64,000 bases of DNA, taken from positions 8,423 to 72,422 of the forward strand of contig JAGZSF010000007.1 of assembly GCA_018381235.1 (NCBI GenBank). Direction: 5' to 3'. A program made the translations under genes and the position numbers. Below, piece by piece: positions 9,672 through 27,249 of the stretch. The notes under the pieces are model-generated. The model had not been told where the DNA came from and searched no databases. It was given only the letters and a program-made list of their open reading frames with translations. The stretch is from Collinsella sp. (GTDB lineage Bacteria; Actinomycetota; Coriobacteriia; Coriobacteriales; Coriobacteriaceae). Every line of letters starts with the position of its first letter. Position 1 is the stretch's first letter.

Positions 9672-10575
9672 ACTCACCAGCGAGCAGAGACTCTCGCGCG
9701 CCATCGACATCATGGAGGCCCTCTACGCCGCCGGCGATGGCGGCATGACACGAACCGAGATTTGCAGCCGCTTTGACATCACGGGGGCGTCGCTCGACGA
9801 GATTCTCGAGATCGTCTCGACGCTCGCGGACCGAGAATCGGGCGCGCGCATCATCTGCGAATGCCGCGGCGAGCGCGTGGCCCTCACTGGTGACGCCGGG
9901 CGCGTGCTACCGTTGCGCCTGAGTGCCGCCGAGGGCGCCGTGCTCAACCATGAACTTGAATCGTTGGGGATCGAGCCGCAGACGGCAGCTCGGATTCGAC
10001 ATGCCCTTCTGCCCGAAGAGCTCGGCTATAACCAGCGCGTCTTTGACACCGTCAACCACGGGTCGCACTGGCAGCAGCTGAGCTGCGCCATTCAGGACGG
10101 TGTTCGTTGCCGCATCTCGTATCGCTCGATGGACGATGCGCGGCCACGCGAGCGTCTGGTCGACCCCTTGCGCATTACGGCAAACGGCGACCAAACATAC
10201 CTGATTGCCTGGGACATCGCGGTCGAGGAGGAGCGCACCTATCGCATGGATAAAATCGAGGGACTCACCTTGACGGAAGACTCCGTCGTGCCTCACACAC
10301 CGGGCGTCGCATCCCTCCACGATTCCCTTGCCCGGACGCAGCGTAGCGCAAAGCTCTTGATGCCATTCGATATGGCGGAGCATCTGGACTGGGCCGGCAT
10401 CACCCTAATCGAGCGCAGCGGGGCAGACATGGCAACGGTAACCGTGCATTACGGCTCCGAGCGTTGGCTACTGAGCCAGGTAATCGCAGCGGGCGGAGCC
10501 ATCCGCATCTTGGATGACCCCGCCCTGTCAAAGCGTCTGTGCGATATGGCAAAAACCCTCGTCTGTCCGCTTTAG
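9658..10575 (+). CDS. PafC-like WYL-domain transcriptional regulator
   Basis: HTH MTRTEICSRFDITGASLDEILEIV. WYL region RCRISYRSMDDARPRERLVDPLRITANGDQTYLIAWDIAVEEERTYRMDKI. Confidence 0.7.
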   Translation: MPVRKLTSEQRLSRAIDIMEALYAAGDGGMTRTEICSRFDITGASLDEILEIVSTLADRESGARIICECRGERVALTGDAGRVLPLRLSAAEGAVLNHELESLGIEPQTAARIRHALLPEELGYNQRVFDTVNHGSHWQQLSCAIQDGVRCRISYRSMDDARPRERLVDPLRITANGDQTYLIAWDIAVEEERTYRMDKIEGLTLTEDSVVPHTPGVASLHDSLARTQRSAKLLMPFDMAEHLDWAGITLIERSGADMATVTVHYGSERWLLSQVIAAGGAIRILDDPALSKRLCDMAKTLVCPL

Positions 10576-13466
10576 CGCCGCCGCTCGTGACGTGCGCGCC
10601 ACAGTTGCAGATAGTGACCGATCTGCGCCGATTCGATGCGCTGGTAGGAGCTCGTGGGCAGCGACGTTAAGAACTTCTTTCCGTAGCCCTTCGTCACCAG
10701 GCGCGGGTCGGCCAGAATCAGCACGCCGCAATCGGTCGACGAGCGGATAAGGCGGCCGGCCGCCTGCTTAACCTCGAGCACCGCCTCGGGCAGCGAATAG
10801 CGCGCCCAAGCGCGGTCTTCGCGCAGGTTGCGCTCGCACGAGAGCGGGTCCGTGGGGCTCGAGAACGGCAGCTTGGGAATGATGACGCAACGCAGCGTCT
10901 CGCCGCTGGCGTCAAACCCCTCCCAGAAGGCCTTAAGCGCAAAAAGCGACGAGGTCGGCTCGTTGATAAACCGGTCGCGCAGGCGACGAGGAGATGAGTT
11001 GCGCTGCTGGCAGTTGAGCTCCAGACCCGCACGGGCCATCTTGGGCTCAACGCGGGCGTACAGGTCTTCCATGTCGCGCCGATTGGTAAACAGTGTGAGC
11101 ACCGATCCGCCCATGGCAAGATGGGCGTCGACCAGCACGCGCTCGAGCGCCGTAAGATAGCTCTCACGATCGCGCGGATCGGGTATATCGCCTGCAACGA
11201 CTACAGCCATGTTCGAATCAAAGTCGTAGCTCGAGTCCAAGTGCAGCGATGAGGATGTCGAAGCACCGATGCGATCGAGGCCGACCGCGTGGTTAAAGTG
11301 TTCAAAGCTTTTGGACACCGTCATGGTCGCCGAGGCAAAGATAGCCGTGTGAACCTCGGGCAGCCACTCGGTTGCCAAGGCCTCGCCAATGTCGATGCGC
11401 TCTGCGGTCATTGACTCTCCGCCGGCACGCAGCCTGCGATTGACCTGCAGCGAATACACGTAGTGTTCATCGGTGCCGTCGATGATGAGTTTGAGGTTCT
11501 CGGCCAGCTCGTGCAGGCGGCGCGAGATATCGCCCAAGTCGACAACAACCTCGGGCTTGTCGGCGGCGACAGCCTGCACCAGCGCGTCGACGCTCTTGTC
11601 AGCTTGTTCCAATGCATCGATGGCAGCGTAGGCCGACTGTAAGAAATCATGCCAGTCGTCAGATTCGCGCAACTCGGGGCCAATCCATAGATTGGCATTG
11701 TCATAACCCCCACGGGCACGGCGGCCGAGCTCGCGAACGCCATCGAACACGTCGGCGATTGCCATGCTCGCGCGCGCAACCGTCGACGTCGCCTTGGCAG
11801 TAAGGCCCAGATAGAGCGTAGAGCCCTCGGAGGTTGCCAAATCACGGGAAACCTGGCTTAGCGCACCGGTGCTCGAGCCACCCAGGCGCTCAAACAGAAC
11901 GCGTGATTCGTCCGCCGACACCACGCGCGCCCACTGACGGCGCGCCTCGCGCTCGATGGAATGGGCCTCGTCGATTACCCAATGACGAATCGGAGGTAAA
12001 ATCCTGCCCTCGGCCGCGACATTGCGGAACAGCAGGGAATGGTTGGTGACCACCACGTCGGCATGCGCTGCACGACGGCGAGCGCCGTGGACCAAACATT
12101 TATCAGGGAAAAACGGGCAGAGGCGACGAGCACACTCGCGCGAGGCCGTCGTAAAGTCGGGGCGGTTGACGCTGCGCCACCGAATGCCGAGCGAGTCGAG
12201 GTCGCCATCGGCTGATTGGCAGACGTACGCCATAATGACCGCGACCGCCGTGAGCGTGTCCGCCGGATCGCGCTTGGTGGTAATCTCGACCTGGCCGCGG
12301 CTCATGCGCTCAAGCTTGCGCAGGCACGGATAGTGGTCATAGCCCTTGAGAGCGCAAAATGACAGGCCACCGTCCAGTTGCTCGGCAAGTTTTGGCAGCT
12401 CATGGTACATGAGCTGGTCGGCAAGATTGTTCGATTTGGTCGCAATACCAACCGTGATGTTGTTACGGCGTGCTGCCTCGGCAAAAGGCACCAGATAGGC
12501 CATCGATTTGCCGACGCCCGTGCCCGCCTCAATTACACGATGAGTGCCCGTGACCAGCGCATCGCGGACCTCGAGCGCCATCGCGATCTGCTCATCACGC
12601 GGCTCGTAGGTGGGATACATGCGATTGACCAGGCCACCTGGCGCATAGTCTGCCTCAATCTCCTCACGACTCGGCATCTTGAGTACCGGCAGTTCGTCGG
12701 CGTCCACCCGATCGTCGGCGCGATCGGCCTTGAGAACGTCAGCACGAGCGGCGCTGAGAGAGAAGATAGAACCAGGGTTCTGCCCCGCCAAGAATGAGAA
12801 GATTGGACGATAGGACCAAGGCACGTCCGGATGCATGTCGGCTAGGCGCGCCATGAGGCCCTGGGGCAAGTCGGTGAGTGCCACGAGCAACACGCGCCAT
12901 ACGCCACACAGGGCGTCGACGTCGGCATTGGCACGGTGTGATACCGAGTCACAGCCAAACAGATCGGCCATAAAAGACAGCTTGTGCGAGGCCAGGCGCG
13001 GAAGCGCGATGCGCGACAGCGCCAGCGAATCGATCCAAATATCGCTCACGTTGACGCCGCCTTTGACCGACTCGATAAACGAGCGGTCGAACGTGGCGTT
13101 ATGTGCGATTACCGGGCAACCACCGACAAAATCGGCGAGAGCGGCGACGGCCTCAACGGCCGACGGGGCATCTGCCACATCGGCATTTGTAATGCTCGTG
13201 AGCTCGGTAATCTCGGCGGGAATCAGCTGTTTGGGATGCACGAAGGTATCGAAGCGGTCGACGACCTCGCGGCCCGAAAGACGGGCCGCCGAGATCTCGA
13301 TCAGCTCATTGTCCTGCACCGAAAGACCTGTGGTCTCGGTATCGAGGACGATCACATCTTCCTCGATAAGGCCGAAGGACTGCGTTTTGGCGCGTTCGGC
13401 AAGCGTGGCATAGGAGTCGATGACAAACTGCGGCGTTCCTGACGAAACCGCGTCCTCGATTAGCAT
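10572..13466 (-). CDS. dinG: DinG-family ATP-dependent helicase with an N-terminal DnaQ-like 3'-5' exonuclease domain
   Basis: DEDD exonuclease motifs VLDTETTGL and IAHNATFDRSFI. Helicase Walker A GTGVGKSMAYLVP and DEAH box VIDEAHSIE. 964 aa, like the exo-DinG proteins of Gram-positives. Its stop codon overlaps the pafC-like stop on the opposite strand. Confidence 0.85.
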   Translation of the reverse strand: MLIEDAVSSGTPQFVIDSYATLAERAKTQSFGLIEEDVIVLDTETTGLSVQDNELIEISAARLSGREVVDRFDTFVHPKQLIPAEITELTSITNADVADAPSAVEAVAALADFVGGCPVIAHNATFDRSFIESVKGGVNVSDIWIDSLALSRIALPRLASHKLSFMADLFGCDSVSHRANADVDALCGVWRVLLVALTDLPQGLMARLADMHPDVPWSYRPIFSFLAGQNPGSIFSLSAARADVLKADRADDRVDADELPVLKMPSREEIEADYAPGGLVNRMYPTYEPRDEQIAMALEVRDALVTGTHRVIEAGTGVGKSMAYLVPFAEAARRNNITVGIATKSNNLADQLMYHELPKLAEQLDGGLSFCALKGYDHYPCLRKLERMSRGQVEITTKRDPADTLTAVAVIMAYVCQSADGDLDSLGIRWRSVNRPDFTTASRECARRLCPFFPDKCLVHGARRRAAHADVVVTNHSLLFRNVAAEGRILPPIRHWVIDEAHSIEREARRQWARVVSADESRVLFERLGGSSTGALSQVSRDLATSEGSTLYLGLTAKATSTVARASMAIADVFDGVRELGRRARGGYDNANLWIGPELRESDDWHDFLQSAYAAIDALEQADKSVDALVQAVAADKPEVVVDLGDISRRLHELAENLKLIIDGTDEHYVYSLQVNRRLRAGGESMTAERIDIGEALATEWLPEVHTAIFASATMTVSKSFEHFNHAVGLDRIGASTSSSLHLDSSYDFDSNMAVVVAGDIPDPRDRESYLTALERVLVDAHLAMGGSVLTLFTNRRDMEDLYARVEPKMARAGLELNCQQRNSSPRRLRDRFINEPTSSLFALKAFWEGFDASGETLRCVIIPKLPFSSPTDPLSCERNLREDRAWARYSLPEAVLEVKQAAGRLIRSSTDCGVLILADPRLVTKGYGKKFLTSLPTSSYQRIESAQIGHYLQLWRARHERRR

Positions 13467-14425
13467 GCAATGCCCGCTCGACGAAGGCCCATACGGATCA
13501 GGCTGTCACAGACCTGCGGGAACGTCATGTCGTCGGTGTGGCGGATCTCGTCCGGATACAGCGACGTATCGGTCATGCCGGGAATGGTATTGGTCTCGAG
13601 GATAACGGGGCCGTCCTCACTCACAATAAAGTCGCTGCGCGAGATACCCAGGCAACCGAGGGCCTTGTGAGCAGCACAGGCAAGCTCCTGGGCACGAGCG
13701 TAATTCTCGGGTGAAATCTGCGCCGGAATGCGATGGATGTCCGTAGGATCGACATACTTCACGTCCAGATCGTAGAACTCGCAGTCCTTGGGCTTACGAA
13801 TCTCGACAATCGGCAGAGCGCGCACGTCATCTTCGCCGTATACGCCGACGGTGATCTCGGTACCCTCGATGCACTTCTCGACCAGCACTTTGTCGCCGTA
13901 CTCAAACGCTTTGGCGATTGCCGCGGGCAGCTCGGATGGCTCATGGACCAGGGAAATGCCATAGCTGGAACCGTTGACGGCCGGCTTCACAAAGCAGCGC
14001 TCGCCACAAACCTCGACGATATGATCGATATCGACTTCATCGCCCACCTCGAGCGCAAGGCCGGGGGCAATGGGAATGCCCGCCTTGGCGTACAGGAGCT
14101 TAGAGACCTCCTTGTCGGCACCGCAGGCGCTGGCAAGCACGCCCGAAGCCGTGTAGGGGATACCCAGGGTCTCCATGGCGCCTTGCATGGCGCCATCCTC
14201 GCCGCCGGCACCGTGCATGGCGATAAACGCCACGTCAAAGCCGCCGGTCGCCATGGTTACCATAAAATCATCGGCAGCCGTGTCGAGCAGCTCCACCGAA
14301 GTGTAGCCGGCCTCCTTCAAGGCAACCACGACGTTCTTTCCCGAATTGAGCGAGATCTCGCGCTCAGCGGAATGACCGCCCGCCAAGACCGCTACGTGCA
14401 TGTTCTCTAGGCTTTTACCCGGCAT
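13460..14425 (-). CDS. ddl: D-alanine--D-alanine ligase
   Basis: VAVLAGGHSAEREISLNSG, ATP-grasp motifs, and C-terminal EINTIPGMT-like ETNTIPGMTDTSLYP. The ATG at 14425 follows AGGAGGAG; an alternative ATG at 14401 would give MHVAVLAGG. Confidence 0.85.
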   Translation of the reverse strand: MPGKSLENMHVAVLAGGHSAEREISLNSGKNVVVALKEAGYTSVELLDTAADDFMVTMATGGFDVAFIAMHGAGGEDGAMQGAMETLGIPYTASGVLASACGADKEVSKLLYAKAGIPIAPGLALEVGDEVDIDHIVEVCGERCFVKPAVNGSSYGISLVHEPSELPAAIAKAFEYGDKVLVEKCIEGTEITVGVYGEDDVRALPIVEIRKPKDCEFYDLDVKYVDPTDIHRIPAQISPENYARAQELACAAHKALGCLGISRSDFIVSEDGPVILETNTIPGMTDTSLYPDEIRHTDDMTFPQVCDSLIRMGLRRAGIAC

Positions 14426-14510
14426 GGGCAGACTCCTCCTCTATAATTTCTGCAGCTGATACCATATTGTAGCGATACCCTCTACGTTTCCCCAAAATCG
14501 AAAGGCTTCC

Positions 14511-15563
14511 ATGAATCCCAGGACTAAATCTCAGGACATTCGCGACTTGAGCCAAAACGATATTCGCGAGCTCTTGGCCGAGCTTGGCCAGCCCGCCTTC
14601 CGCGCGAAGCAGCTCATCGAATGGGTCTTTGAGAAGAACGTTTGTTCGTTTGACGATATGACCAACCTTCCCAAGGCTTTCCGCGAGCAGCTTAAAGAGG
14701 CTTTTGCCTTTGACACGCCGACTGAACTCACCAAGCAGGTTTCCAAAGATGGCTCTCGCAAGTATCTGCTCGAGTACCACGACGGCGTTTCCGTCGAGAC
14801 CGTCGGCATGCCCCGTCGTAACAAGCTTTCCGTCTGCGTTTCCACCCAGGCAGGCTGTGGCATGGGCTGTGCCTTTTGCGCTACCGGTCTCAACGGCCTC
14901 AAGCGCTCTCTGACCGCTCAAGAGATCGTCGACCAGGTGCTTCATGTATCCAACGACTTTGGCGAGCGCGCCACGAGCGTTGTCTTCATGGGCCAGGGCG
15001 AGCCGTTTGCCAACTACGACGAGGTTCTCAAGGCGCTGCGAATCCTCAACGACCCCGATGGCATCGGTATCGGCGCTCGTCACCTCACCGTCTCTACCAG
15101 CGGCGTTATTCCCGGTATTCGCAAATTTGCCGATATCCCCGAGCAGTTCACGCTTGCCGTTTCCCTGCATTCCGCCATCCAGTCGACGCGCAATAAGCTC
15201 ATGCCCGGTGTTAAGAAGTACACGCTGCTTCGCCTTCACGAAGCACTTCAGCTCTACACCGAGAAGACCGGCCGCCGCCCGACCTATGAGTATGCCATGA
15301 TCGAAGGCGTCAACGATACGAATCCCGAAATGCAGGCGCTCTGCGACTTCTGCGAGGGAACGCTGTGCCACGTTAACCTCATTCAGCTTAACGACATCGA
15401 GGGTAGCCCGCTCAAGCCGTCGCCGATGCATAAGGTTGAGGATCTTCAGCGTCGTCTTGAGTCCCGTGGCATCGAGACCACAATTCGCAACTCCCGTGGT
15501 AACGATATTGACGCCGCTTGTGGACAGCTGAAGCAGCGCTTCAAAGTTCAGAAGAACGCATAG
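14511..15563 (+). CDS. rlmN: 23S rRNA (adenine2503-C2)-methyltransferase, radical SAM
   Basis: CGMGCAFCATG radical-SAM cysteine triad. The overall RlmN pattern is present (FRAKQLIEWVF..., MGQGEP). The antisense ORF 14415..15641 is rejected. Confidence 0.9.
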   Translation: MNPRTKSQDIRDLSQNDIRELLAELGQPAFRAKQLIEWVFEKNVCSFDDMTNLPKAFREQLKEAFAFDTPTELTKQVSKDGSRKYLLEYHDGVSVETVGMPRRNKLSVCVSTQAGCGMGCAFCATGLNGLKRSLTAQEIVDQVLHVSNDFGERATSVVFMGQGEPFANYDEVLKALRILNDPDGIGIGARHLTVSTSGVIPGIRKFADIPEQFTLAVSLHSAIQSTRNKLMPGVKKYTLLRLHEALQLYTEKTGRRPTYEYAMIEGVNDTNPEMQALCDFCEGTLCHVNLIQLNDIEGSPLKPSPMHKVEDLQRRLESRGIETTIRNSRGNDIDAACGQLKQRFKVQKNA

Positions 15564-15581
15564 GGGAGTCGCACCCCAAAA

Positions 15582-15597
15582 CGTTTCATGTGAAACA
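15582..15597. promoter_or_regulatory. degenerate parS-like palindrome (cGTTTCATGTGAAACa)
   Basis: Two mismatches to TGTTTCACGTGAAACA; lies about 20 nt after the rlmN stop. Confidence 0.3.
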
Positions 15598-15601
15598 TCG
15601 A

Positions 15602-15645
15602 ACGTCCCCGGTTGTAGAGTATGCAACCGGGGACGTTTCATTTAT
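15602..15645 (+). terminator. rho-independent terminator after rlmN
   Basis: ACGTCCCCGGTTG-tagagtatg-CAACCGGGGACGT followed by a TTCATTTATT T-rich tract. Confidence 0.5.
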
Positions 15646-20667: not shown

Positions 20668-20802
20668 CTAGACAGTGAGACGCTTGCGGCCCTTGGCGCG
20701 ACGACGGGCGAGCACGGCACGACCACCCTTAGTGGCCATACGGGCACGGAAGCCATGGGTCTTGGCACGCTTACGCTTATTAGGCTGATACGTACGCTTC
20801 AT
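20668..20802 (-). CDS. rpmH: 50S ribosomal protein L34
   Basis: [47 protein letters not shown] at 20802 is 5 nt after GGAGGAAC. The track ORF extends artificially upstream. Confidence 0.9.
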
Positions 20803-20862
20803 CTTAAGTTCCTCCTGCTGCATTTCGAGTGTCCGCGGGGACGCGGACGCAGATATAGACAC

Positions 20863-21147
20863 GTGAGCTTGAAGATTGTAGGGAAATCAATGTTCAAATG
20901 TCAAGAAATCAAAGGTAAAAGGTTGCGCAGTTCACACGGTTCCCCCATAAGCCAAGCTCGATTTAGCGGTGCATGGAAACTTTTCACGATATTTCATCGA
21001 GTTTTCAACAGGTCATGTTGGCAATGTTGAGAACTTTTCGTCCGTTTTCCAAAGTTTTCAACAGGTTTTGAAAGTTTGTCGAAAGATGAGAAACATTGCA
21101 CGGTGAGCTACTATTTGTTCGAAACCTTTTGGAAGATTGCGAGCGGC
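20863..21147. other. rpmH-dnaA intergenic region with repeated AGTTTTCAACAGG(TTTTGAAAGTTTGTCGAAAG) motifs; candidate DnaA-box / origin-proximal regulatory cluster
   Basis: AGTTTTCAACAGGT at 21000..21013 and a 33-mer AGTTTTCAACAGGTTTTGAAAGTTTGTCGAAAG at 21053..21085. TTTTCAACA is two mismatches from the DnaA box TTATCCACA. Related copies lie after dnaA (24254..24276 and 24317..24349). Confidence 0.4.
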
Positions 21148-22500
21148 ATGTCTGACGACTTTTACACCATGGTCGATTCCGGAGACCCGGCACCCGACAA
21201 CGAGCACATCACCGGCGTGCGCGAAGAGCGTGACGAAGGTGAACAGACGACAACGCAGGCGCCAAAAGCCATGTACGCCGCGCGCATCGCCGTCTATGAC
21301 GACATGCTGTCGACACCGCGTGTGATCGTCATCGATCCGCAAGATGTCCGCACGTATTTGGAAGAGACGACCAACACCGTCTACCAGTGCATGAAAGAAC
21401 AAGGTGGCCATATCTCGCTCATGGTCATCCGCGAGATTGTCGAAAACTTTATCCACGCACACTTTGCAGAGCCCATCATCTCGATTCTGGACGGCGGAGA
21501 CACCATCCGCTTTGCTGACCAAGGACCCGGCATCGACGACAAGGAACGCGCTTTCGACTTTGGCGTTACCAGCGCAAACAGCAAGATGAAGCGCTATATC
21601 CGTGGAACCGGAGCAGGGTTTCCCATGGTGCAGGAGTATTTGGAAAACGCCGGCGGTGCCGTATCCATCGAGGACAACATGGGCAACGGCACCGTGGTTA
21701 CGGTAAGCCTGAACCCTAAACGCGTGCAGGAAATCGAGCGTGCCGGCGGACGCGGTGCTGCCGTGCGGCCCGAGACGGAGCAGCCCACATATCCCCTGCC
21801 GGGAGCTTTTGCGCAGCAGCCCATGGCAACGCAGCAGATGCAGCCCCCCGTGGGGCAGATGCAGCAGCCCGGAATGCTTCCCACACAAGAGCCCCAGGCG
21901 GCATCTATGTCGATGACGCCAAACATGCCAGAGGCCATGCCGCTGGCAGATCAGGATGCAGCAGCAATGCAGCAGGCGACGGGGGCACCGGGTGGCCAGC
22001 AAATGGGCTATCAGCCGTACCAACGGGGATATCCATATCAGCAGATGCCGCCACTGGGGTATGGCCAGCAGTTCCCGCAGCAGTACCAGCAGGGATATCA
22101 GCAGCCGTACCAGCAGATGCCGCAGCAGCAGTACAACCCCTGGGCCCAACAGATGCCTCTGCAGCCTTACCAACAGTGGCCTCAAAGTTTTCAACAGCAA
22201 ATGCCGCCGATGCAGAGTTCTCAACAACCAGCAGCTCAAATGATGTATCCTAATGCAGCAAATCAGTATGCGCAGCCACAACCGGACGTGTTCGTAAGCG
22301 ATCGCGGCAACGCCGCGCTGGGCTATCTGGCGCAAAATCAAGCGTGCGGTGCAACCGATCTGGCGAGGGCGTTTGGAAACTCAGCCCCCACTTGGTCACG
22401 CACGCTCAATGACTTGGCGCAGGCCGGCTTGGTCATCAAGCATGGCCAGAAATACCATCTGACCGAACTCGGCGCCGCTCGCGTGCGAGCTCAGAGCTAA
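21148..22500 (+). CDS. unusual protein: RsbW/SpoIIAB-like GHKL ATPase domain + ~200-aa Q/P/Y/M-rich low-complexity linker + C-terminal winged-helix DNA-binding domain
   Basis: GHKL N-box VIREIVENFIHAHF, G1 box RFADQGPGI, G2 box RGTGAGFPMV, G3 box GNGTVVTVSL. Linker is rich in QQMQPP, YQQMPPLGYGQQFPQQYQQGYQQPYQQ. C-terminal wHTH DRGNAALGYLAQNQACGATDLARAFGNSAPTWSRTLNDLAQAGLVIKHGQKYHLTELG. Stop at 22500, 15 nt before dnaA. The start is uncertain (ATG 21148; the track's upstream extension from 21076 is unsupported). Confidence 0.6.
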   Translation: MSDDFYTMVDSGDPAPDNEHITGVREERDEGEQTTTQAPKAMYAARIAVYDDMLSTPRVIVIDPQDVRTYLEETTNTVYQCMKEQGGHISLMVIREIVENFIHAHFAEPIISILDGGDTIRFADQGPGIDDKERAFDFGVTSANSKMKRYIRGTGAGFPMVQEYLENAGGAVSIEDNMGNGTVVTVSLNPKRVQEIERAGGRGAAVRPETEQPTYPLPGAFAQQPMATQQMQPPVGQMQQPGMLPTQEPQAASMSMTPNMPEAMPLADQDAAAMQQATGAPGGQQMGYQPYQRGYPYQQMPPLGYGQQFPQQYQQGYQQPYQQMPQQQYNPWAQQMPLQPYQQWPQSFQQQMPPMQSSQQPAAQMMYPNAANQYAQPQPDVFVSDRGNAALGYLAQNQACGATDLARAFGNSAPTWSRTLNDLAQAGLVIKHGQKYHLTELGAARVRAQS

Positions 22501-22515
22501 AGAACGGGAGAGACA

Positions 22516-24240
22516 GTGGACGAGGAAGCAAGCATCATCCTGGGGGATGCCATCGCCTTTTGCCAGCGCGACGGCCAAGATGCACGCCTCATCAACATGC
22601 TGGGGCAATCGCGGGCCATAAGCCTGACCGAAGATACGCTCACGATCGAGGCCCCCTCGCGCTTTGCCATCGCGCAGCTCAAAAAGCATCAGCCGACTAT
22701 TGAGGCCTATCTGGAAGAAATCGCCTTTGCACCGATCGCGCTCGACATCGTGGCACCGCAAGGCGCCGCAACGGAATCCGCTGCCGCGACGGCGCCCGCC
22801 ACGGCTCCCGCCGCTTCCCCGGCGGCACCGACCTCCGCAGGCGACGTGCCGACAATCGAGCACCAGCACAGCGATGTTTCCCGTGAAACCATGGCACCGT
22901 TGCCGACCGCGGCGGCGACGTCAACGAACGCACCCGTCACGCACATGCCTATCGCTCACGACGCAGCGGCGGGCGCGGATTCGGGCATTGCAATCAAGAA
23001 CACGCTCTCGGCCGATGATTTTCGTCGCATGATGAACCAGATGAAGGGCGGAGCGCCGACTAAATCCACGCAAGCTGCGGCCCCCGCTTCACCCATACCG
23101 GCGCCGACCGTGCCGGCCGAGCAGAATACGGATGGAGCCCCGCTCGCCGCGAACTCAAAATTTACCTTTGAGAACTTTGTCTACGGCCCCGAAAACAGCC
23201 ATGCCTATCGCTCGGCACTCAAGTTTGCCGCCCTCGCGGACGAGCGCGGCACATGCACATCACTGTTCATCTACGGCAAATCGGGCCTGGGCAAGACGCA
23301 CCTGCTGCTTGCCATCAAAAACGAGCTCGCCGAGAAGTCGCCCGAGATCAAGGTCAAGTATGCCAACTCCCAGGCATATCTGGACGACCTGATGACCGAG
23401 TTCGACCGCCAAAAGAAGAGCAACGCCCCCATCATGCAGGCGTACCACGGCGTGGACGTGCTCATCATCGATGACATCCAAAACATCATCGGCAAGCGCG
23501 CGAGCGTGGACTACTTTTTCCAGCTCATGGACGAGTTCATCCGCAACAACAAGAAGGTCGTCATCGCGGCAGACCGTGCCCCCAAGGACCTGAGCATGGA
23601 CGAGCGTCTGACCAGCCGCTTCAACGCCGGCATGCTCTGCCTGGTCGCAGAGCCCAGCTACGAGATGAAATACAAGATCTTGCAGCGCTATTACGAGAAC
23701 ACCATCGTCGCCGCTCCCGAGGCAGGCGACGACTCGCTGCTGGCGGCCTATGGGGGCGACGGCGGACACCTGACCGACGAGCACTTTAAACACATGGCCG
23801 AGGTCTCGGGCACCAACATCCGCGAACTCGAGAGCTTTTGCGAGCGCTGCGCCGGCGAGGCGGGCGACCGCGAGCGCGAGGGCGGGGAGCTCACCTTTGA
23901 CGATATCGACGCCATCGCCAGCCAGTACTTCGACACATCGGCCAAAAAGATCAACGTCCAGACGGTTCAGTCCGTCATCGAAGAGCAGTACGGCGTGACG
24001 CACGAGGAGCTCATCGGCCCGCGTCGCAACGCCAATATCGCCAAAGCACGCCATATCGCTATCTACCTGGCCATCGAGATGTGCGAGATGACGACCACGG
24101 CGGTGGGCGCCGAATTTGGCAACCGCAACCACTCGACCGTCAGCACGAGCTACAAAAAGGTCCAGAAGATGATCCAGGAAGACCGTACCGTCACCGAAGA
24201 CCTCAAATCGCTGCGCGATAAAATTACACTGCGCTCGTAG
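22516..24240 (+). CDS. dnaA: chromosomal replication initiator protein DnaA
   Basis: GTG start after GGGAGAG. AAA+ Walker A LFIYGKSGLGKTHLL. Domain IV KARHIAIYLAIEMCEMTTTAVGAEFGNRNHSTV. Long Ala/Pro-rich domain II. Confidence 0.95.
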   Translation: MDEEASIILGDAIAFCQRDGQDARLINMLGQSRAISLTEDTLTIEAPSRFAIAQLKKHQPTIEAYLEEIAFAPIALDIVAPQGAATESAAATAPATAPAASPAAPTSAGDVPTIEHQHSDVSRETMAPLPTAAATSTNAPVTHMPIAHDAAAGADSGIAIKNTLSADDFRRMMNQMKGGAPTKSTQAAAPASPIPAPTVPAEQNTDGAPLAANSKFTFENFVYGPENSHAYRSALKFAALADERGTCTSLFIYGKSGLGKTHLLLAIKNELAEKSPEIKVKYANSQAYLDDLMTEFDRQKKSNAPIMQAYHGVDVLIIDDIQNIIGKRASVDYFFQLMDEFIRNNKKVVIAADRAPKDLSMDERLTSRFNAGMLCLVAEPSYEMKYKILQRYYENTIVAAPEAGDDSLLAAYGGDGGHLTDEHFKHMAEVSGTNIRELESFCERCAGEAGDREREGGELTFDDIDAIASQYFDTSAKKINVQTVQSVIEEQYGVTHEELIGPRRNANIAKARHIAIYLAIEMCEMTTTAVGAEFGNRNHSTVSTSYKKVQKMIQEDRTVTEDLKSLRDKITLRS

Positions 24241-24478
24241 GGAAATAGAGACACCTGTTGAAAACTTGTCGAAACCATGGGCATAAGGTGTCTAAAACCC
24301 AACCCGCGGTGGTGAAAAGTTTTGCGCAGGTTTTGAACGTGGAAAACCACCCCCGTTGCACACAGGTTGCTGTCGATTCTCTTTCTGGGTCTGACCTGCG
24401 TCTTTGGGAGTAATCAACAGTTTCGTCAGTGCTATTACTATTATTAAGATATTTATATCTAAAGAAAGGTATTAAAAG
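24241..24478. other. candidate oriC: dnaA-dnaN intergenic region with DnaA-box-like motifs and an AT-rich unwinding element
   Basis: Motifs CCTGTTGAAAACTTGTCGAAACC (24254..24276) and AAGTTTTGCGCAGGTTTTGAACGTGGAAAACCA (24317..24349; contains TTTTCCAC). The 24400..24478 stretch is about 75% AT (ctattactattattaagatatttatatctaaagaaaggtattaaaag), immediately before the dnaN ATG. Confidence 0.5.
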
Positions 24479-25582
24479 ATGAAGTTCACCGTCAGCCAGA
24501 GCTCGCTTACACAAGCCATCGGCGTCGTTATGAAGGGCGTCGCTTCGGCGTCTACCCTTCCCATCCTGTCGGGCGTGCTCGTCAAGGCGCAAGACGGCAT
24601 CTTGGAATTCCAGACCTCTAACTACACCATCTCGATCCGTCATCGCATCGCGGCGCATGTCGAAGAAGAGGGTGAGATGGTTATCCCCTGTAAGATGCTC
24701 TCCAATATCACCAAGACCCTCCCCGATGCCCCGGTCACCTTTGAGCTGTCCGAGCGCCAGGTGCTGATTGGTTGCGAGAAGAGCTCTTTCCGCCTGAACA
24801 CGCTCGATGTCAATGACTTCCCCGAGTTTCCGGCCTATGCCATCGAGAGTGCCGTGGAGCTGCCGACCGATATCTTGTCCGAAATGGTCGGCCGCGTGTG
24901 GCGCGTCACCTCGACCGACAAGGCCCGCCCCATTCTGGGTGGCGTGCACATGAAGGTCGAGAACAACACCGTGCGCCTGGTGGCGACCGATTCCTTCCGC
25001 TTGGCCGTGTGCGATACGCAGGTCGAGACCTCGACTCTCGAGGGCTCCTTTGAACTCAACGTTCCGGCCGACGCCTTTAACGACGCGCTGAACATCATGG
25101 CCAGCCAGGCGACCATCATGATCGGGGCTACCGACACCCAGGTCGTCTTCGAGGCCGGCAACACCACCTACGTGTCGCGCCGTATCGAGGGCATGTACCC
25201 CAACTACAAGCAGCTCATCCCCGATTCGTGCGTGACGAGCGTCAAGATCGACGTCGCCGCCTTTAACGCCGCCCTCAAGCGCGTGGCCGTTATCGCGAGC
25301 GCCAACCCCGCCGTCAAGTTCGAGATCGATGTCGAGAACGGGCAGATGGGCCTGTCCTCCATTTCCAATGACCAGGACCTTGCGCAGGAGACGATCGATG
25401 TCGAGGCCGAGGGCGAGTCGGGCACCATCGCCTTCAACTACCACTACATCTTTGGCTGCCTCAATGCCCTGTCCAAGGAGAAGGAGATCACGCTGGAGCT
25501 CAAGAGCTACTCGCAGGCGGGCATCTTCAAGTCCTACGACAAGATCAACTACCTGTACCTGGTTATGCCGGTCCGCATCTAG
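24479..25582 (+). CDS. dnaN: DNA polymerase III beta sliding clamp
   Basis: MKFTVSQSSLTQAIGVVMKGV... and C-terminal ...YLYLVMPVRI, typical DnaN; 367 aa. Confidence 0.95.
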   Translation: MKFTVSQSSLTQAIGVVMKGVASASTLPILSGVLVKAQDGILEFQTSNYTISIRHRIAAHVEEEGEMVIPCKMLSNITKTLPDAPVTFELSERQVLIGCEKSSFRLNTLDVNDFPEFPAYAIESAVELPTDILSEMVGRVWRVTSTDKARPILGGVHMKVENNTVRLVATDSFRLAVCDTQVETSTLEGSFELNVPADAFNDALNIMASQATIMIGATDTQVVFEAGNTTYVSRRIEGMYPNYKQLIPDSCVTSVKIDVAAFNAALKRVAVIASANPAVKFEIDVENGQMGLSSISNDQDLAQETIDVEAEGESGTIAFNYHYIFGCLNALSKEKEITLELKSYSQAGIFKSYDKINYLYLVMPVRI

Positions 25583-25592
25583 CAACCGCCCT

Positions 25593-26699
25593 ATGACCAT
25601 GTTCGCCCGCGATCTTTCCGTCGCGCACTACCGCAGCTTCGATAGTTATCGCCTTGCCCTGGACGAGGGCGTGACGATACTTGCGGGACCCAACGCGGCG
25701 GGAAAGACCAATCTCATAGAGGCGCTGCAGCTGCTGACGAGCGGCGCCTCGTTTAGGCATCCGACCGCAGCCGAGCTCGTCCATGATGGCGTGGGCTCGT
25801 GCAAGGTCGAGCTGAGGCTCGAGGGCGACGGCCGCGTGCTTGATATGGGATTGAGCGTGGAGGACGGTAAGCGCTCGTTTAGCCGCAACGGCAAGAGGTG
25901 CTCTGCCGCCGGTGTGCGCGGGGCTCTGCCGAGCGTGCTGTTTTGCCCCGACCATCTGGACATGGTTAAGCGAGGCGCCAGTGTGCGCCGCGCCGCCCTC
26001 GATGACTTTGGCATGCAGCTGAGCGCACGTTATGCCGATCTTGCGAGCACCTATGGACGCTGCGTGACCCAGCGTAACGCCCTGCTCAAGGAGACCTGGT
26101 GCTGTCGCGAGATGCTCGGCGCGTGGAACGATTCGATTGCCCGCGCGGGCTCGGCCCTGCTTGTGCACCGGTTGGCCCTGCTCGACCGGCTGGCGGGCCA
26201 TGTGCACACTGCCTACGGGCAAGTGGCATCCGGTGAGGCTGCCAACGTGACCTATACGTCCACGCTGGGGGATTTGCCCCAGGTCGATGATCGCGAAGAG
26301 CTGAAGGGCTGGGCGTACGAGCGCATGCTGGCTGCCCTTGATGAGCACGCCGACGAGGAAATTCGCCGCGGCGTGACGTTGGTGGGACCGCATCGCGATG
26401 AGATTGAGTTTACCGTGGCGGGTCGCTCCGCCCGTTCATTTGCCAGCCAAGGTCAGCAGCGAACGTTGGTTCTGGCCTGGAAGGTGGCGGAGGTGGCCGT
26501 GGCTCGCGATGTCCTGGGCACCGCCCCGTTGCTGCTTTTGGACGACGTGATGAGCGAACTCGACGGCGAACGCCGCGGTGCTTTTCTGCGGCTGATCGGC
26601 GATGATATCCAGACGGTCATAACCACGACCAACCTGGGGTATTTTACCGATGACCTGCTTGATCGAGCCAAGGTGGTGAGCATGGGTGAGACGTGCTAA
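25593..26699 (+). CDS. recF: DNA replication and repair protein RecF
   Basis: ATG at 25593 gives MTMFARDLSVAHYRSFDSYRLALDEGVTILAGPNAAGKTNLIEALQLL (Walker A). ABC signature and D-loop LLLLDDVMSELD near the C-terminus. The track ORF start at 25329 runs through the end of dnaN and is rejected. Confidence 0.9.
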   Translation: MTMFARDLSVAHYRSFDSYRLALDEGVTILAGPNAAGKTNLIEALQLLTSGASFRHPTAAELVHDGVGSCKVELRLEGDGRVLDMGLSVEDGKRSFSRNGKRCSAAGVRGALPSVLFCPDHLDMVKRGASVRRAALDDFGMQLSARYADLASTYGRCVTQRNALLKETWCCREMLGAWNDSIARAGSALLVHRLALLDRLAGHVHTAYGQVASGEAANVTYTSTLGDLPQVDDREELKGWAYERMLAALDEHADEEIRRGVTLVGPHRDEIEFTVAGRSARSFASQGQQRTLVLAWKVAEVAVARDVLGTAPLLLLDDVMSELDGERRGAFLRLIGDDIQTVITTTNLGYFTDDLLDRAKVVSMGETC

Positions 26700-27249
26700 T
26701 TACGAGCGCGAGAGCGAAACGGTTGCCTTCAGTGGATTTTTGAACGCAGAGCGTCAGCGCATCCTGGCGGCCGCGACACCTGAGCGCCGCGCGCAGATGG
26801 AGGCTGCCGAGGAGTCGCGCGCGGTCTATCGCGCGTGGAACGCGGTGTGCTCGGGCACGCGCGAGGGGCGGCATGTGACGGGCTTGCGCTACCTGCCCGA
26901 GTCCAATGAGCTGCTGGTATATCTCGATTCGCCCTCGTGGACGCAGGAAATGACGCTGTTGCGCGAGATCATCCGCGCGCGCATGGAGCGCGCCGGTGCG
27001 CATGTGGACGGCCTGGTGTTCAAAACCACCGCGCCGGGTCACACGCCGCCCGCCGCCAAGCAGCGCCTGCGCCCGGCGACGACCGAGCGCCCGCCGGCCC
27101 CGCACGCCGACCTAAGTGAGGCCGAATGCACCGAGATTGAGCGCCAAGTGGCGCCCATCGAAGACCAAAAACTGCGCGAGGCCCTCGAGAATGCCATGAG
27201 AGCCAGTGCCGAGTGGGCCAAGGGCGTAGAAAGCAAAAAAGAGCCTTAA
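26686..27249 (+). CDS. DUF721-domain protein (DciA-like), conserved between recF and gyrB
   Basis: GTG start overlapping the recF stop. Pattern AVYRAWNAVCSGTREGRHVTGLRYLPESNELLVYLDSPSWTQEMTLLREIIRARM fits DUF721. Same position as Rv0004 (DciA) in Mycobacterium. Confidence 0.55.
   Translation: MRRANYERESETVAFSGFLNAERQRILAAATPERRAQMEAAEESRAVYRAWNAVCSGTREGRHVTGLRYLPESNELLVYLDSPSWTQEMTLLREIIRARMERAGAHVDGLVFKTTAPGHTPPAAKQRLRPATTERPPAPHADLSEAECTEIERQVAPIEDQKLREALENAMRASAEWAKGVESKKEP

Follow-up and report, generated by a model that had tools for sequence, protein, structure and literature searches.

A conserved GHKL and winged-helix protein encoded directly upstream of dnaA, a candidate initiation regulator in Coriobacteriia and related Actinomycetota

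A conserved gene between rpmH and dnaA

We analyzed a stretch of 64,000 nucleotides from a Collinsella genome (hereafter, the window) and found that the gene directly preceding dnaA encodes a protein composed of a GHKL-type ATP-binding domain, a disordered linker and a C-terminal winged helix-turn-helix (wHTH). This gene, which we call the GHKL-wHTH gene, is real and strongly conserved. Because it is always the cistron before dnaA, lies behind a cluster of DnaA-box-like sites, and encodes an intact and conserved ATP pocket together with a DNA-binding domain, it ranks, on genomic evidence alone, with the clearest candidates for a lineage-specific regulator of replication initiation. The control of DnaA is known in detail for only a few model bacteria. 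To our knowledge, essentially nothing is known about it in the Actinomycetota outside Mycobacterium and Streptomyces, including the medically relevant gut Coriobacteriia such as Collinsella and Eggerthella.

The open reading frame spans 21076..22500 on the + strand, and the ATG at 21148 is the start that is conserved in orthologues; the gene thus covers 21148..22500 (+), ends with the stop codon TAA at 22498-22500, and encodes 450 aa. The product is identical to MBS5278826.1, which is named ‘ATP-binding protein [Collinsella aerofaciens]’ at NCBI, and the translation contains all of the peptides quoted in an earlier note on this DNA. As that note had described, the gene is located between rpmH and dnaA, and its stop codon lies 15 nt before the dnaA start. 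The left neighbour is the divergent gene rpmH for ribosomal protein L34 (20668..20802, - strand; 44 aa). With the rpmH start set to the ATG at 20802, the rpmH-to-gene spacer extends from 20803 to 21147, and not from 20863 onward as had been assumed. On the rpmH side of this spacer, the - strand carries a promoter-like TTGACA-18-TACAAT (20904->20875). The spacer between the GHKL-wHTH gene and dnaA (22501..22515, + strand; 15 nt) contains a Shine-Dalgarno-like GGGAGAG and no terminator. It is followed by dnaA (22516..24240, + strand; 574 aa, GTG start; Bac_DnaA 1e-41, Bac_DnaA_C 8e-21) and dnaN (24479..25582, + strand), and downstream of these lie a recF-like ORF (25329..26699 as listed, with its start not refined) and a DciA-family ORF (26686-27249). 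The order of the genes around the GHKL-wHTH gene, dnaA and dnaN is repeated in related loci.

We found 253 representatives of the family (50% clustering, E<1e-30). The named members fall within the actinomycetotal classes Coriobacteriia and Ca. Aquicultoria, and their sources comprise Coriobacteriaceae, Eggerthellaceae, Coriobacteriia MAGs, Ca. Aquicultor and Ca. Oleimmundimicrobium. This breadth was established by looking up contigs, by a scan of metagenomes and from the names of sources; the scan of a genome collection listed 80 loci, of which all 80 belong to Collinsella. Three MAG proteins are labelled Firmicutes; since the gene order in the two of these neighbourhoods that we examined is that of Ca. 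Aquicultor, we did not rely on this label.

The earlier note had proposed to ask whether the gene is constantly adjacent to dnaA in related genomes, and this is what we observed. In all 11 contigs looked up and in all 55 informative metagenomic loci, dnaA lies directly downstream on the same strand (66/66 loci in total). The metagenomic loci range from 27 to 71% in GC content, and in 54 of 56 of them rpmH or rnpA is found upstream in divergent orientation. The neighbours in all loci are rpmH, rnpA, yidC and jag on one side and dnaA, dnaN, recF, dciA and gyrB on the other. Among the loci checked, we saw no copy of the GHKL-wHTH gene away from dnaA. Our searches of the full-text literature, which covered this architecture, these taxa and the setting next to dnaA, returned no description of the family, in line with the remark in the earlier note that no origin-associated regulator with such an architecture had been described.

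Domain architecture of the protein

Profile searches and AlphaFold models bore out the three-part architecture of GHKL domain, disordered low-complexity linker and wHTH that had been read from the sequence. The GHKL/Bergerat ATP-binding core (21277..21717, + strand; residues 44-190) matches the Pfam family HATPase_c (PF02518) at residues 93-189 with E=1e-10 and 42.5 bits, compared with a gathering score of 26.4, and the same family is matched by all 123 aligned relatives, so that the GHKL assignment of the N-terminal domain holds at the profile level. The motifs that define the GHKL superfamily are all conserved, namely the N-box Asn for Mg2+ (E96-x-x-E99-N100-x-x-H103-A104), the DxGxG of the G1 box for adenine (D124-Q-G-P-G128), the GxGxG of the G2 box (R152-G-x-G-x-G157) and the GT of the G3 box (G181-T). 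The Mg/ATP-site residues N100, D124, G126, G128, G153, G155 and G157 are invariant in the relatives, with little or no variation at E96, E99 and H103. The ATP lid contains S142, A143 and K148, and the residues S142, A143, M147, K148 and R152 are nearly invariant. In addition, the core of 146 aa shows no indels in 122 of the 123 relatives, and it is modelled with pLDDT values mostly above 90. Judged from these residues, the ATP-binding pocket is complete and highly conserved, and ATP binding itself is predicted. Ahead of the N box, the model shows a beta-hairpin and a helix (residues 45-84).

The N-terminal tail that precedes the core (21148..21276, + strand; residues 1-43) has a conserved aromatic pair at residues 5-6 (MSDDFY) and, after it, an acidic disordered spacer, with pLDDT values of about 47-64. 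An F-Y pair occurs within the first eight residues of 311 of the 426 family members, compared with 27 of 426 for a control window.

The linker (21778..22272, + strand; residues 211-375, 165 aa) is rich in Q (28%), P (17%), A (11%), M (10%) and Y (8%), contains six charged residues, and has pLDDT values below 50. An imperfect 12-nt tandem array (CAGCAGTACCAG x5.8) lies inside it at 22066-22134. Among Collinsella orthologues, the linker is 80.7% identical and carries indels, whereas the core is 98.8% identical. Across the family its length ranges from 12 to 291 aa, and the long linker is, as judged from this comparison, an expansion specific to the lineage. The earlier note had likened the Q/P/Y/M-rich tract to phase-separating domains. 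The disorder and the composition were confirmed; however, the linkers of many members are only 12-60 aa long, and a prion-like linker therefore cannot belong to the core features that the family shares.

The C-terminal wHTH (22285..22497, + strand; residues 380-450) is a folded domain of about 70 aa that is modelled with pLDDT above 90 as three helices, a wing and one further helix, with the recognition helix at about 413-425 and the wing at 429-438. Families of wHTH proteins are matched by most of the 123 relatives, and both profile and structure comparison indicate a likeness to generic MarR-, ArsR- and Csa3-type regulators. Thus the winged-helix fold suggested in the earlier note was recovered, but membership of MarR was not, as the scores lie below the gathering scores (MarR, 16.2 bits vs 24.6; MarR_2, 21.7 bits vs 27) and the domain lacks the dimerisation helices on its N- and C-terminal sides by which MarR proteins are defined. 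The two AlphaFold models have pTM values of 0.53 and 0.62, which means that the relative placement of the GHKL domain and the wHTH is not reliably predicted; a fixed docking of one onto the other was considered and is not established at these values.

Comparison with known proteins

The best sequence and Foldseek matches of the protein are the catalytic domains of the histidine kinases HK853 of T. maritima and KinB of B. subtilis/G. stearothermophilus (PDB 3dge and 3d36), with which it has in common the Bergerat fold and the N, G1, G2 and G3 boxes. Unlike histidine kinases, it has no DHp/HisKA domain, sensor, membrane segment or cognate response regulator, and it possesses in addition the hairpin and helix of residues 45-84 and the fusion to a wHTH through a disordered linker. 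In Pfam, no HisKA-type family matched the window protein at E<=1. The one modelled helix ahead of the N box does not form the helical hairpin that a DHp domain would need, and the sole invariant His is H103, inside the N box. We found no gene for a response regulator, a STAS protein or a sigma factor in any neighbourhood examined. A two-component sensor histidine kinase was therefore rejected, given the lack of HisKA, of a phospho-acceptor His and of a response regulator.

The earlier note had placed the four Bergerat boxes in the arrangement of the anti-sigma kinases RsbW and SpoIIAB. The boxes and the GHKL fold were recovered through HATPase_c, but the affinity to RsbW/SpoIIAB was not. The family HATPase_c_2 (PF13581) gave no match at E<=1 in the window protein and was outside the 25 families most frequently matched by the 123 relatives. 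In contrast to SpoIIAB and RsbW, the protein has a DNA-binding domain and a His (His103) at position N+3. In histidine kinases and PDKs, N+3 is a Lys/Arg position, and the SpoIIAB equivalent is located at N+4. An anti-sigma kinase of this type was rejected because there is neither a PF13581 match nor a STAS antagonist or sigma-factor gene, and the suggestion of a partner-switching kinase acting at the origin finds no support in the same evidence.

A structural likeness was also seen to DIP2311 of Corynebacterium diphtheriae (PDB 3lmm), although the identity is 12-15% and there is no match at the sequence level. DIP2311 is an uncharacterised structural-genomics protein of 492 aa that has a large extra N-terminal part and no known link to dnaA. 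We take it to belong to the AlbA_2 / HATPase_c_4 / HTH ‘predicted transcriptional regulator’ group (COG2865); neither AlbA_2 (Schlafen-like) nor HATPase_c_4 matched the window protein at E<=1 in Pfam. Regulators of the Csa3/CasR type likewise combine a ligand-sensing domain with a C-terminal wHTH, but the sensor of the GHKL-wHTH protein is a GHKL ATP-binding domain and not CARF. A role in defence was rejected, since the PADLOC models (Csa3, CasR) match only the wHTH.

Searches of Pfam, NCBIfam and PDB sequences returned GHKL and wHTH matches only, and no homology to Hda, YabA, SirA, DiaA/HobA, Soj, SeqA, MtrA, AdpA, CtrA, Spo0A or HP1021. What the GHKL-wHTH protein would have in common with these known regulators is the presumed site of action, that is, oriC, the dnaA promoter or DnaA. 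We know of no origin or DnaA regulator that is a GHKL protein or the leading cistron of a dnaA operon. AdpA of Streptomyces offers a precedent, as a transcription factor whose binding at an actinobacterial oriC is modulated by ATP.

DnaA-box clusters and coupling to dnaA

The upstream spacer of the GHKL-wHTH gene contains a cluster of DnaA-box-like sites at 20990..21090, with TTTTCAACA at 21002 and 21055 (+), TTCTCAACA at 21025 (-) and TTTTCCAAA at 21045 (+). The cluster includes a 14-nt direct repeat (AGTTTTCAACAGGT at 21000 and 21053) and the 33-mer AGTTTTCAACAGGTTTTGAAAGTTTGTCGAAAG (21053-21085), which was previously thought to recur in the dnaA-dnaN spacer. This recurrence was not found: the 33-mer occurs as a single copy in the window when up to three mismatches are allowed, and what the dnaA-dnaN spacer repeats is only the 12-mer GTTTTCAACAGG (inverted, 24254-24265) with the adjoining 9-mer TTGTCGAAA (24266-24274). 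These two motifs, common to both spacers, are DnaA-box-like (compare TTTTCAACA with the consensus TTWTNCACA). The dnaA-dnaN spacer itself (24241..24478; 42% GC) holds a second cluster, with TTTTCAACA at 24256 (-), TTTTCACCA at 24310 (-), TTTTCCACG at 24338 (-) and TAATCAACA at 24411 (+).

Related loci show the same picture. Canonical clusters of TTTTCCACA or TTATCCACA are found in relatives at the same place, in the rpmH-to-gene spacer; of the 62 related upstream spacers, 58 contain TTTTCCACA, where 1.2 would be expected, and 41 contain TTATCCACA, where 0.2 would be expected. The gene-to-dnaA spacer has one weak DnaA-box site or none in the two relatives in which it is long enough to be scored. 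In the window and in locus L083, DnaA-box clusters flank the gene-dnaA pair on both sides. A k-mer enrichment analysis of the 62 upstream spacers, which looked for a second, non-DnaA motif as a possible operator of the wHTH, yielded only DnaA-box variants and conserved flanks, and in a footprinting comparison 51 distinct Collinsella spacers were nearly identical. The earlier note had suggested that one factor, either DnaA or the GHKL-wHTH protein, reads both spacers. Because the shared motifs are DnaA-box variants and canonical clusters occur at the same place in relatives, DnaA is the more parsimonious reader of these short motifs, rather than the GHKL-wHTH protein.

The gaps between the stop codon of the gene and the start codon of dnaA are mostly -11 to +41 nt, with a 4-nt overlap in eight loci. 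In the window, no terminator-like site was detected on the + strand between the two genes. Based on this result and on the tiny or overlapping spacers in dozens of distant relatives, co-transcription with dnaA, as the earlier note had thought probable, is likely. The near-abutting or overlapping start and stop codons further suggest translational coupling with dnaA. Given that the gene lies downstream of a DnaA-box cluster, its expression is probably tied to DnaA.

Possible function and alternative explanations

We tentatively propose that the protein regulates initiation or the expression of dnaA as a nucleotide-dependent one-component factor, with the leading cistron of a DnaA-box-controlled dnaA operon as its gene, and we give this proposal slightly less than an even chance. 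Transcription would most likely begin in the rpmH-proximal spacer that contains the DnaA-box cluster, and the protein would be co-produced with DnaA and subject to DnaA autoregulation. It consists of an N-terminal F-Y peptide on a disordered tail, a compact GHKL domain, a flexible linker of variable length and a winged helix. When the GHKL domain binds or hydrolyses ATP, the protein may change its state, through dimerisation or a rearrangement of the lid, and this switch may govern how the winged helix acts on DNA in or close to the origin or the dnaA promoter, with DnaA as a partner. DNA binding, ATP dependence and an effect on replication are what we infer from the domains and their context. 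Since the synteny is strict, a role in replication or in the control of dnaA is plausible. Two observations do not favour this proposal: the upstream spacers lack a motif other than the DnaA box, and the recognition helix differs by clade (xPTWSRxL vs STAYRDL) while the DnaA boxes stay the same. The wider claim, that the protein is a new ATP-dependent component of replication initiation translationally coupled to DnaA in Coriobacteriia, Ca. Aquicultoria and related anaerobic Actinomycetota, seems doubtful at present. It could operate through a GHKL switch or kinase acting on DnaA (its nucleotide state, oligomerisation or origin loading), through bridging of the two DnaA-box clusters, or through the F-Y peptide, with which the protein may dock onto DnaA or the beta-clamp.

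We also considered the possibility that the protein is a DNA-tethered protein kinase, in which the GHKL domain transfers phosphate to a Ser, Thr or His of a partner. Candidate substrates would be DnaA, a different protein of the replisome or origin, and T141/S142 in the lid of the protein itself, with the wHTH serving for localisation and the F-Y peptide for substrate recruitment. The GHKL domain is as similar to protein-kinase catalytic domains as to ATPase switches; every one of the top sequence matches is a histidine-kinase catalytic domain (KinB and HK853 in the PDB, and the histidine-kinase models of NCBIfam), the ATP lid is unusually conserved, and in JGI pipelines some members bear the label ‘anti-sigma regulatory factor (Ser/Thr protein kinase)’. 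However, these labels are automatic annotations, and we found no DHp/HisKA domain, no phospho-acceptor His beyond the N box, and no STAS, sigma-factor or response-regulator gene in the neighbourhoods examined. HisKA and HATPase_c_2, moreover, have no match at E<=1 and are not among the leading families in the 123 relatives, and we therefore regard a kinase as unlikely. An ATP-gated DNA bridging or clamping factor seems quite improbable. In such a factor, the wHTHs would sit on both DnaA-box regions that flank dnaA, and dimerisation of the GHKL domains, ATP-driven as in GyrB, MutL, Hsp90 and MORC, would loop or compact a bipartite origin, with the expanded Q/P/Y linker of gut lineages adding multivalent self-association. 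This would agree with the clusters on either side of the gene-dnaA pair, with the E-x-x-x-N motif, which is typical of GHKL domains that hydrolyse ATP and is kept as E96...N100, with the suitability of long flexible linkers as tethers, and with the prion-like composition of the linker (few charges besides the Q and Y). However, the small core comes without the transducer or second dimerisation domain that is found in GHL and MORC clamps, and linkers of just 12-30 aa are seen in many members.

Bacteria keep the order of the genes around oriC unusually constant, and the adjacency to dnaA could persist partly by inertia after an insertion, without a functional link. As a further alternative, the protein may be a conventional transcription factor, local or global, or a nucleotide sensor that has no connection to replication, and its position would be a frozen accident of an ancient insertion. 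The order rpmH-dnaA-dnaN-recF-gyrB is conserved across bacteria whatever the function and is the same in all loci here, and the wHTH resembles those of generic regulators. However, the synteny is invariant over the whole range of GC content, no copy was seen in another context, the stop codon of the gene and the start codon of dnaA lie so close together, or even overlap, as to suggest translational coupling, and the position downstream of a DnaA-box cluster probably ties expression to DnaA. For these reasons, a frozen accident is rather improbable as well.

If the proposed regulatory role is true, then the family would represent a new class of initiation regulator without a counterpart among Hda, YabA, SirA, DiaA and SeqA. 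If the protein is unrelated to replication, it would still define a large uncharacterised family of one-component proteins with a GHKL sensor domain. The labels ‘histidine kinase’ and ‘ATP-binding protein’ under which its members appear in databases are misleading and would be replaced.

Genomic context of the GHKL-wHTH gene

The genomic context of the GHKL-wHTH gene is the strongest result of our analysis. The window represents a Collinsella aerofaciens-type chromosome: a scan of genome collections found a 98-100% identical protein in 80 loci, all of them Collinsella or Coriobacteriaceae, and an identical protein is named 'ATP-binding protein [Collinsella aerofaciens]' in NCBI. The region is a canonical origin neighbourhood, with parB, parA, rsmG, jag, yidC, yidD, rnpA and rpmH on the minus strand, and the GHKL-wHTH gene, dnaA, dnaN, recF and a DciA-family gene on the plus strand. 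The true start of rpmH is ATG 20802, with a strong promoter-like site for this gene at 20904-20875 (minus strand). The GHKL-wHTH ORF is listed as 21076..22500; because the MSDDFY.. peptide encoded from ATG 21148 also opens orthologues of other genera, this codon, which gives 450 aa, is most likely the start. As the earlier note had stated, only 15 nt separate the stop (TAA, ending at 22500) from the dnaA start (GTG, 22516); GGGAGAG lies in this spacer. We also observed a 408-aa ORF adjoining parB (14415-15641, minus strand) that had no Pfam match at E<=1e-5 and sits in a GC-poor stretch (~0.50-0.51 over 14-20 kb vs ~0.60 elsewhere).

Searching 1.84 billion representatives exhaustively, with residues 1-215 as the query, we obtained 253 clusters at E<1e-30, ~45-60% identical across the core. 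The architecture is constant, consisting of a variable N-terminal tail, a core starting ARIAVYD...PRV, a linker and a wHTH. The GHKL-linker-winged helix gene before dnaA that the earlier note described is real, and more general than a single sequence could reveal. Source names of members include Collinsella, Eggerthellaceae, unclassified Coriobacteriia, unclassified Actinomycetota MAGs, and Ca. Aquicultor and Ca. Oleimmundimicrobium (class Ca. Aquicultoria). We treat the Firmicutes label on three MAG proteins as unverified, because the two neighbourhoods that we inspected have the same gene order as Ca. Aquicultor primus.

Adjacency to dnaA, which the note had proposed to check in relatives, held in every informative locus. 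In 11 of 11 contig look-ups of distant members, the gene directly preceded dnaA in the same orientation, and was divergent from rpmH/rnpA wherever the contig reached far enough upstream. In a metagenome scan of loci ranging from 27 to 71% GC, dnaA came next in all 55 loci having enough downstream sequence, and rpmH or rnpA lay upstream on the opposite strand in 54/56. The stop-to-start distance was mostly -11 to +41 nt, with a 4-nt overlap in eight loci, and no plus-strand terminator-like site was found between the two genes in the window. Therefore, co-transcription with dnaA is very likely, and translational coupling is plausible in many lineages. Throughout the loci examined, linkage to dnaA was obligatory; the gene lies downstream of the DnaA-box cluster described below.

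Domain structure

Residues 93-189 match Pfam HATPase_c at 42.5 bits (gathering score 26.4), in agreement with the suggested GHKL assignment, and the same profile matched all of 123 diverse relatives. Residues of the type N100, D124-x-G126-x-G128, G153-x-G155-x-G157 and G181 define a working Bergerat ATP site. In the 123 sequences these positions are invariant, as are E99 and H103; E96 and a large part of the ATP lid are nearly invariant, and the 146-residue core has zero indels in 122 sequences. The predicted ATP site is accordingly intact and highly constrained.

By both sequence and Foldseek, the nearest relatives of the core are histidine-kinase catalytic domains; however, the DHp domain and response regulator that define histidine kinases are absent from this system. 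The analogy to RsbW/SpoIIAB anti-sigma kinases drawn in the note was rejected, since neither the profile test nor the partner-gene test bore it out. The sole solved structure matching both domains together is the uncharacterised DIP2311 (PDB 3lmm), which shares no sequence similarity with the protein, and the inter-domain geometry of our model is uncertain (pTM 0.53-0.62). Searches of Pfam, NCBIfam and PDB sequences found no homology to known DnaA regulators, and no account of the family emerged from full-text literature searches.

AlphaFold placed residues ~41-205 and 380-450 at pLDDT >90 and most of 212-370 below 50, and returned the same two domains for a 283-aa relative with a short linker. 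The last 70 residues match several wHTH families just under threshold; a wHTH was found in 117/123 family sequences. The linker of the window protein spans 165 aa (Q 28%, P 17%, A 11%, M 10%, Y 8%, six charged residues), and its coding sequence holds an imperfect 12-nt tandem array. The Q/P/Y/M-rich tract that had been called 'prion-like' is present, but as a lineage-specific embellishment: linkers vary from 12 to 291 aa (median 121), and because environmental members are usually short-linkered (260-320 aa in total), the long Q/P-rich tract seen in Collinsella and further gut lineages is a secondary expansion. Within Collinsella the linker evolves fast, being 81% identical with frequent indels, as opposed to 98.8% identity in the core.

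An aromatic pair, mostly F-Y, occurs in the first eight residues of 311/426 members vs 27/426 in a control window, a count inflated by the abundance of Collinsella. Its forms are MKSFY (environmental), MxxxFYPFVE (gut lineages) and MSDDFYTMVD (C. aerofaciens; residues 1-10, nt 21148-21177). Separated from the core by a disordered spacer of 16-214 aa, the pair looks like a short linear docking or interaction motif on a disordered tail.

DnaA-box-like motifs

The 33-mer upstream of the gene (21053-21085) had been claimed to recur in the dnaA-dnaN spacer (24241-24478). This was incorrect: no second copy exists in the window at up to 3 mismatches. What this spacer shares with the rpmH-to-gene spacer (20803-21147) are shorter motifs, namely GTTTTCAACAGG, direct at 21001 and 21054 and inverted at 24254-24265, and TTGTCGAAA. 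A single mismatch separates TTTTCAACA from the DnaA-box consensus TTWTNCACA, and sites of this type concentrate in the two AT-rich spacers (41-42% GC vs 59% for the window).

We then counted boxes in the rpmH-to-gene spacers of 62 non-redundant relatives. Canonical boxes pack this spacer, with TTTTCCACA in 58/62 loci (1.2 expected) and TTATCCACA in 41/62 (0.2 expected). About 24 environmental relatives (L088, L090-L092, L096, L102-L140) have in common a strongly conserved module, TCCTGCGTTTTCCACAGTATCCACAGATT, in which two DnaA boxes abut and the flanks are fixed. Located ~190-320 nt from rpmH, on the opposite strand to the GHKL gene, it may represent a core element of the origin. The gene-to-dnaA spacer was long enough for scoring in two relatives, and in these it had none or one weak site. 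On the simplest reading, the shared motifs would be DnaA boxes read by DnaA. In other bacteria, a DnaA-box region directly before dnaA is an autoregulated promoter, half of a bipartite origin, or both. The counterpart of this region here would be the upstream cluster, with the GHKL-wHTH gene intervening between it and dnaA.

The Collinsella sites (21002-21063, 24256-24264) are TTTTCAACA, with A for C at position 6, whereas most relatives (compare L081, L083, L086-L090) have canonical TTTTCCACA or TTATCCACA. This suggests that the preferred box drifted in the Collinsella lineage, possibly along with DnaA domain IV. Two more GTTTTCAACA-like sites (22187-22196 and 22217-22226), ~300 nt before dnaA in the Q-rich linker coding sequence, coincide with S-F-Q-Q and S-S-Q-Q codons and may be a glutamine-codon by-product rather than functional boxes.

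Possible role

The analysis establishes that the ATP site is constrained, that the protein has a DNA-binding fold and a flexible tether, and that the gene is linked to dnaA; the family is a widely conserved, uncharacterised and very probable first cistron of the dnaA operon. We tentatively propose, being almost evenly divided on the matter, that the protein would be made together with DnaA, and that nucleotide binding or hydrolysis in the GHKL domain would act as a switch for its activity on DNA, either at the origin or at the dnaA promoter. It is unlikely that the protein is instead a DNA-tethered protein kinase: nothing else is closer to the domain than kinase catalytic domains are, but a DHp domain is missing, as are any partner genes. 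An ATP-gated bridge joining the two box clusters is attractive given a bipartite origin, yet the protein contains no transducer or second dimerisation domain, and we consider this quite improbable. We would give equally little credence to the idea that this is a generic regulator left beside dnaA by a frozen accident. Gene order around the origin is stable in itself, but so tight a coupling to dnaA, together with the complete lack of unlinked copies, speaks against this idea. That the protein is an initiation regulator of a truly new class seems doubtful; the novelty is the strictly origin-linked arrangement of known domain types.

Some features of the downstream genes were also noted. Collinsella DnaA (22516-24240) is long, at 574 aa, with an Ala/Pro/Thr-rich low-complexity segment at roughly residues 80-205, so that both products of the pair have expanded disordered segments in this genus; Pfam DnaA_N had no match in it but matched the DnaA of relatives. 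In the relative's locus L083, recF is apparently split (10284-11469) into ORFs of 235 and 161 aa, each with an SMC_N match; the cause is a frameshift or else an error in the assembly.
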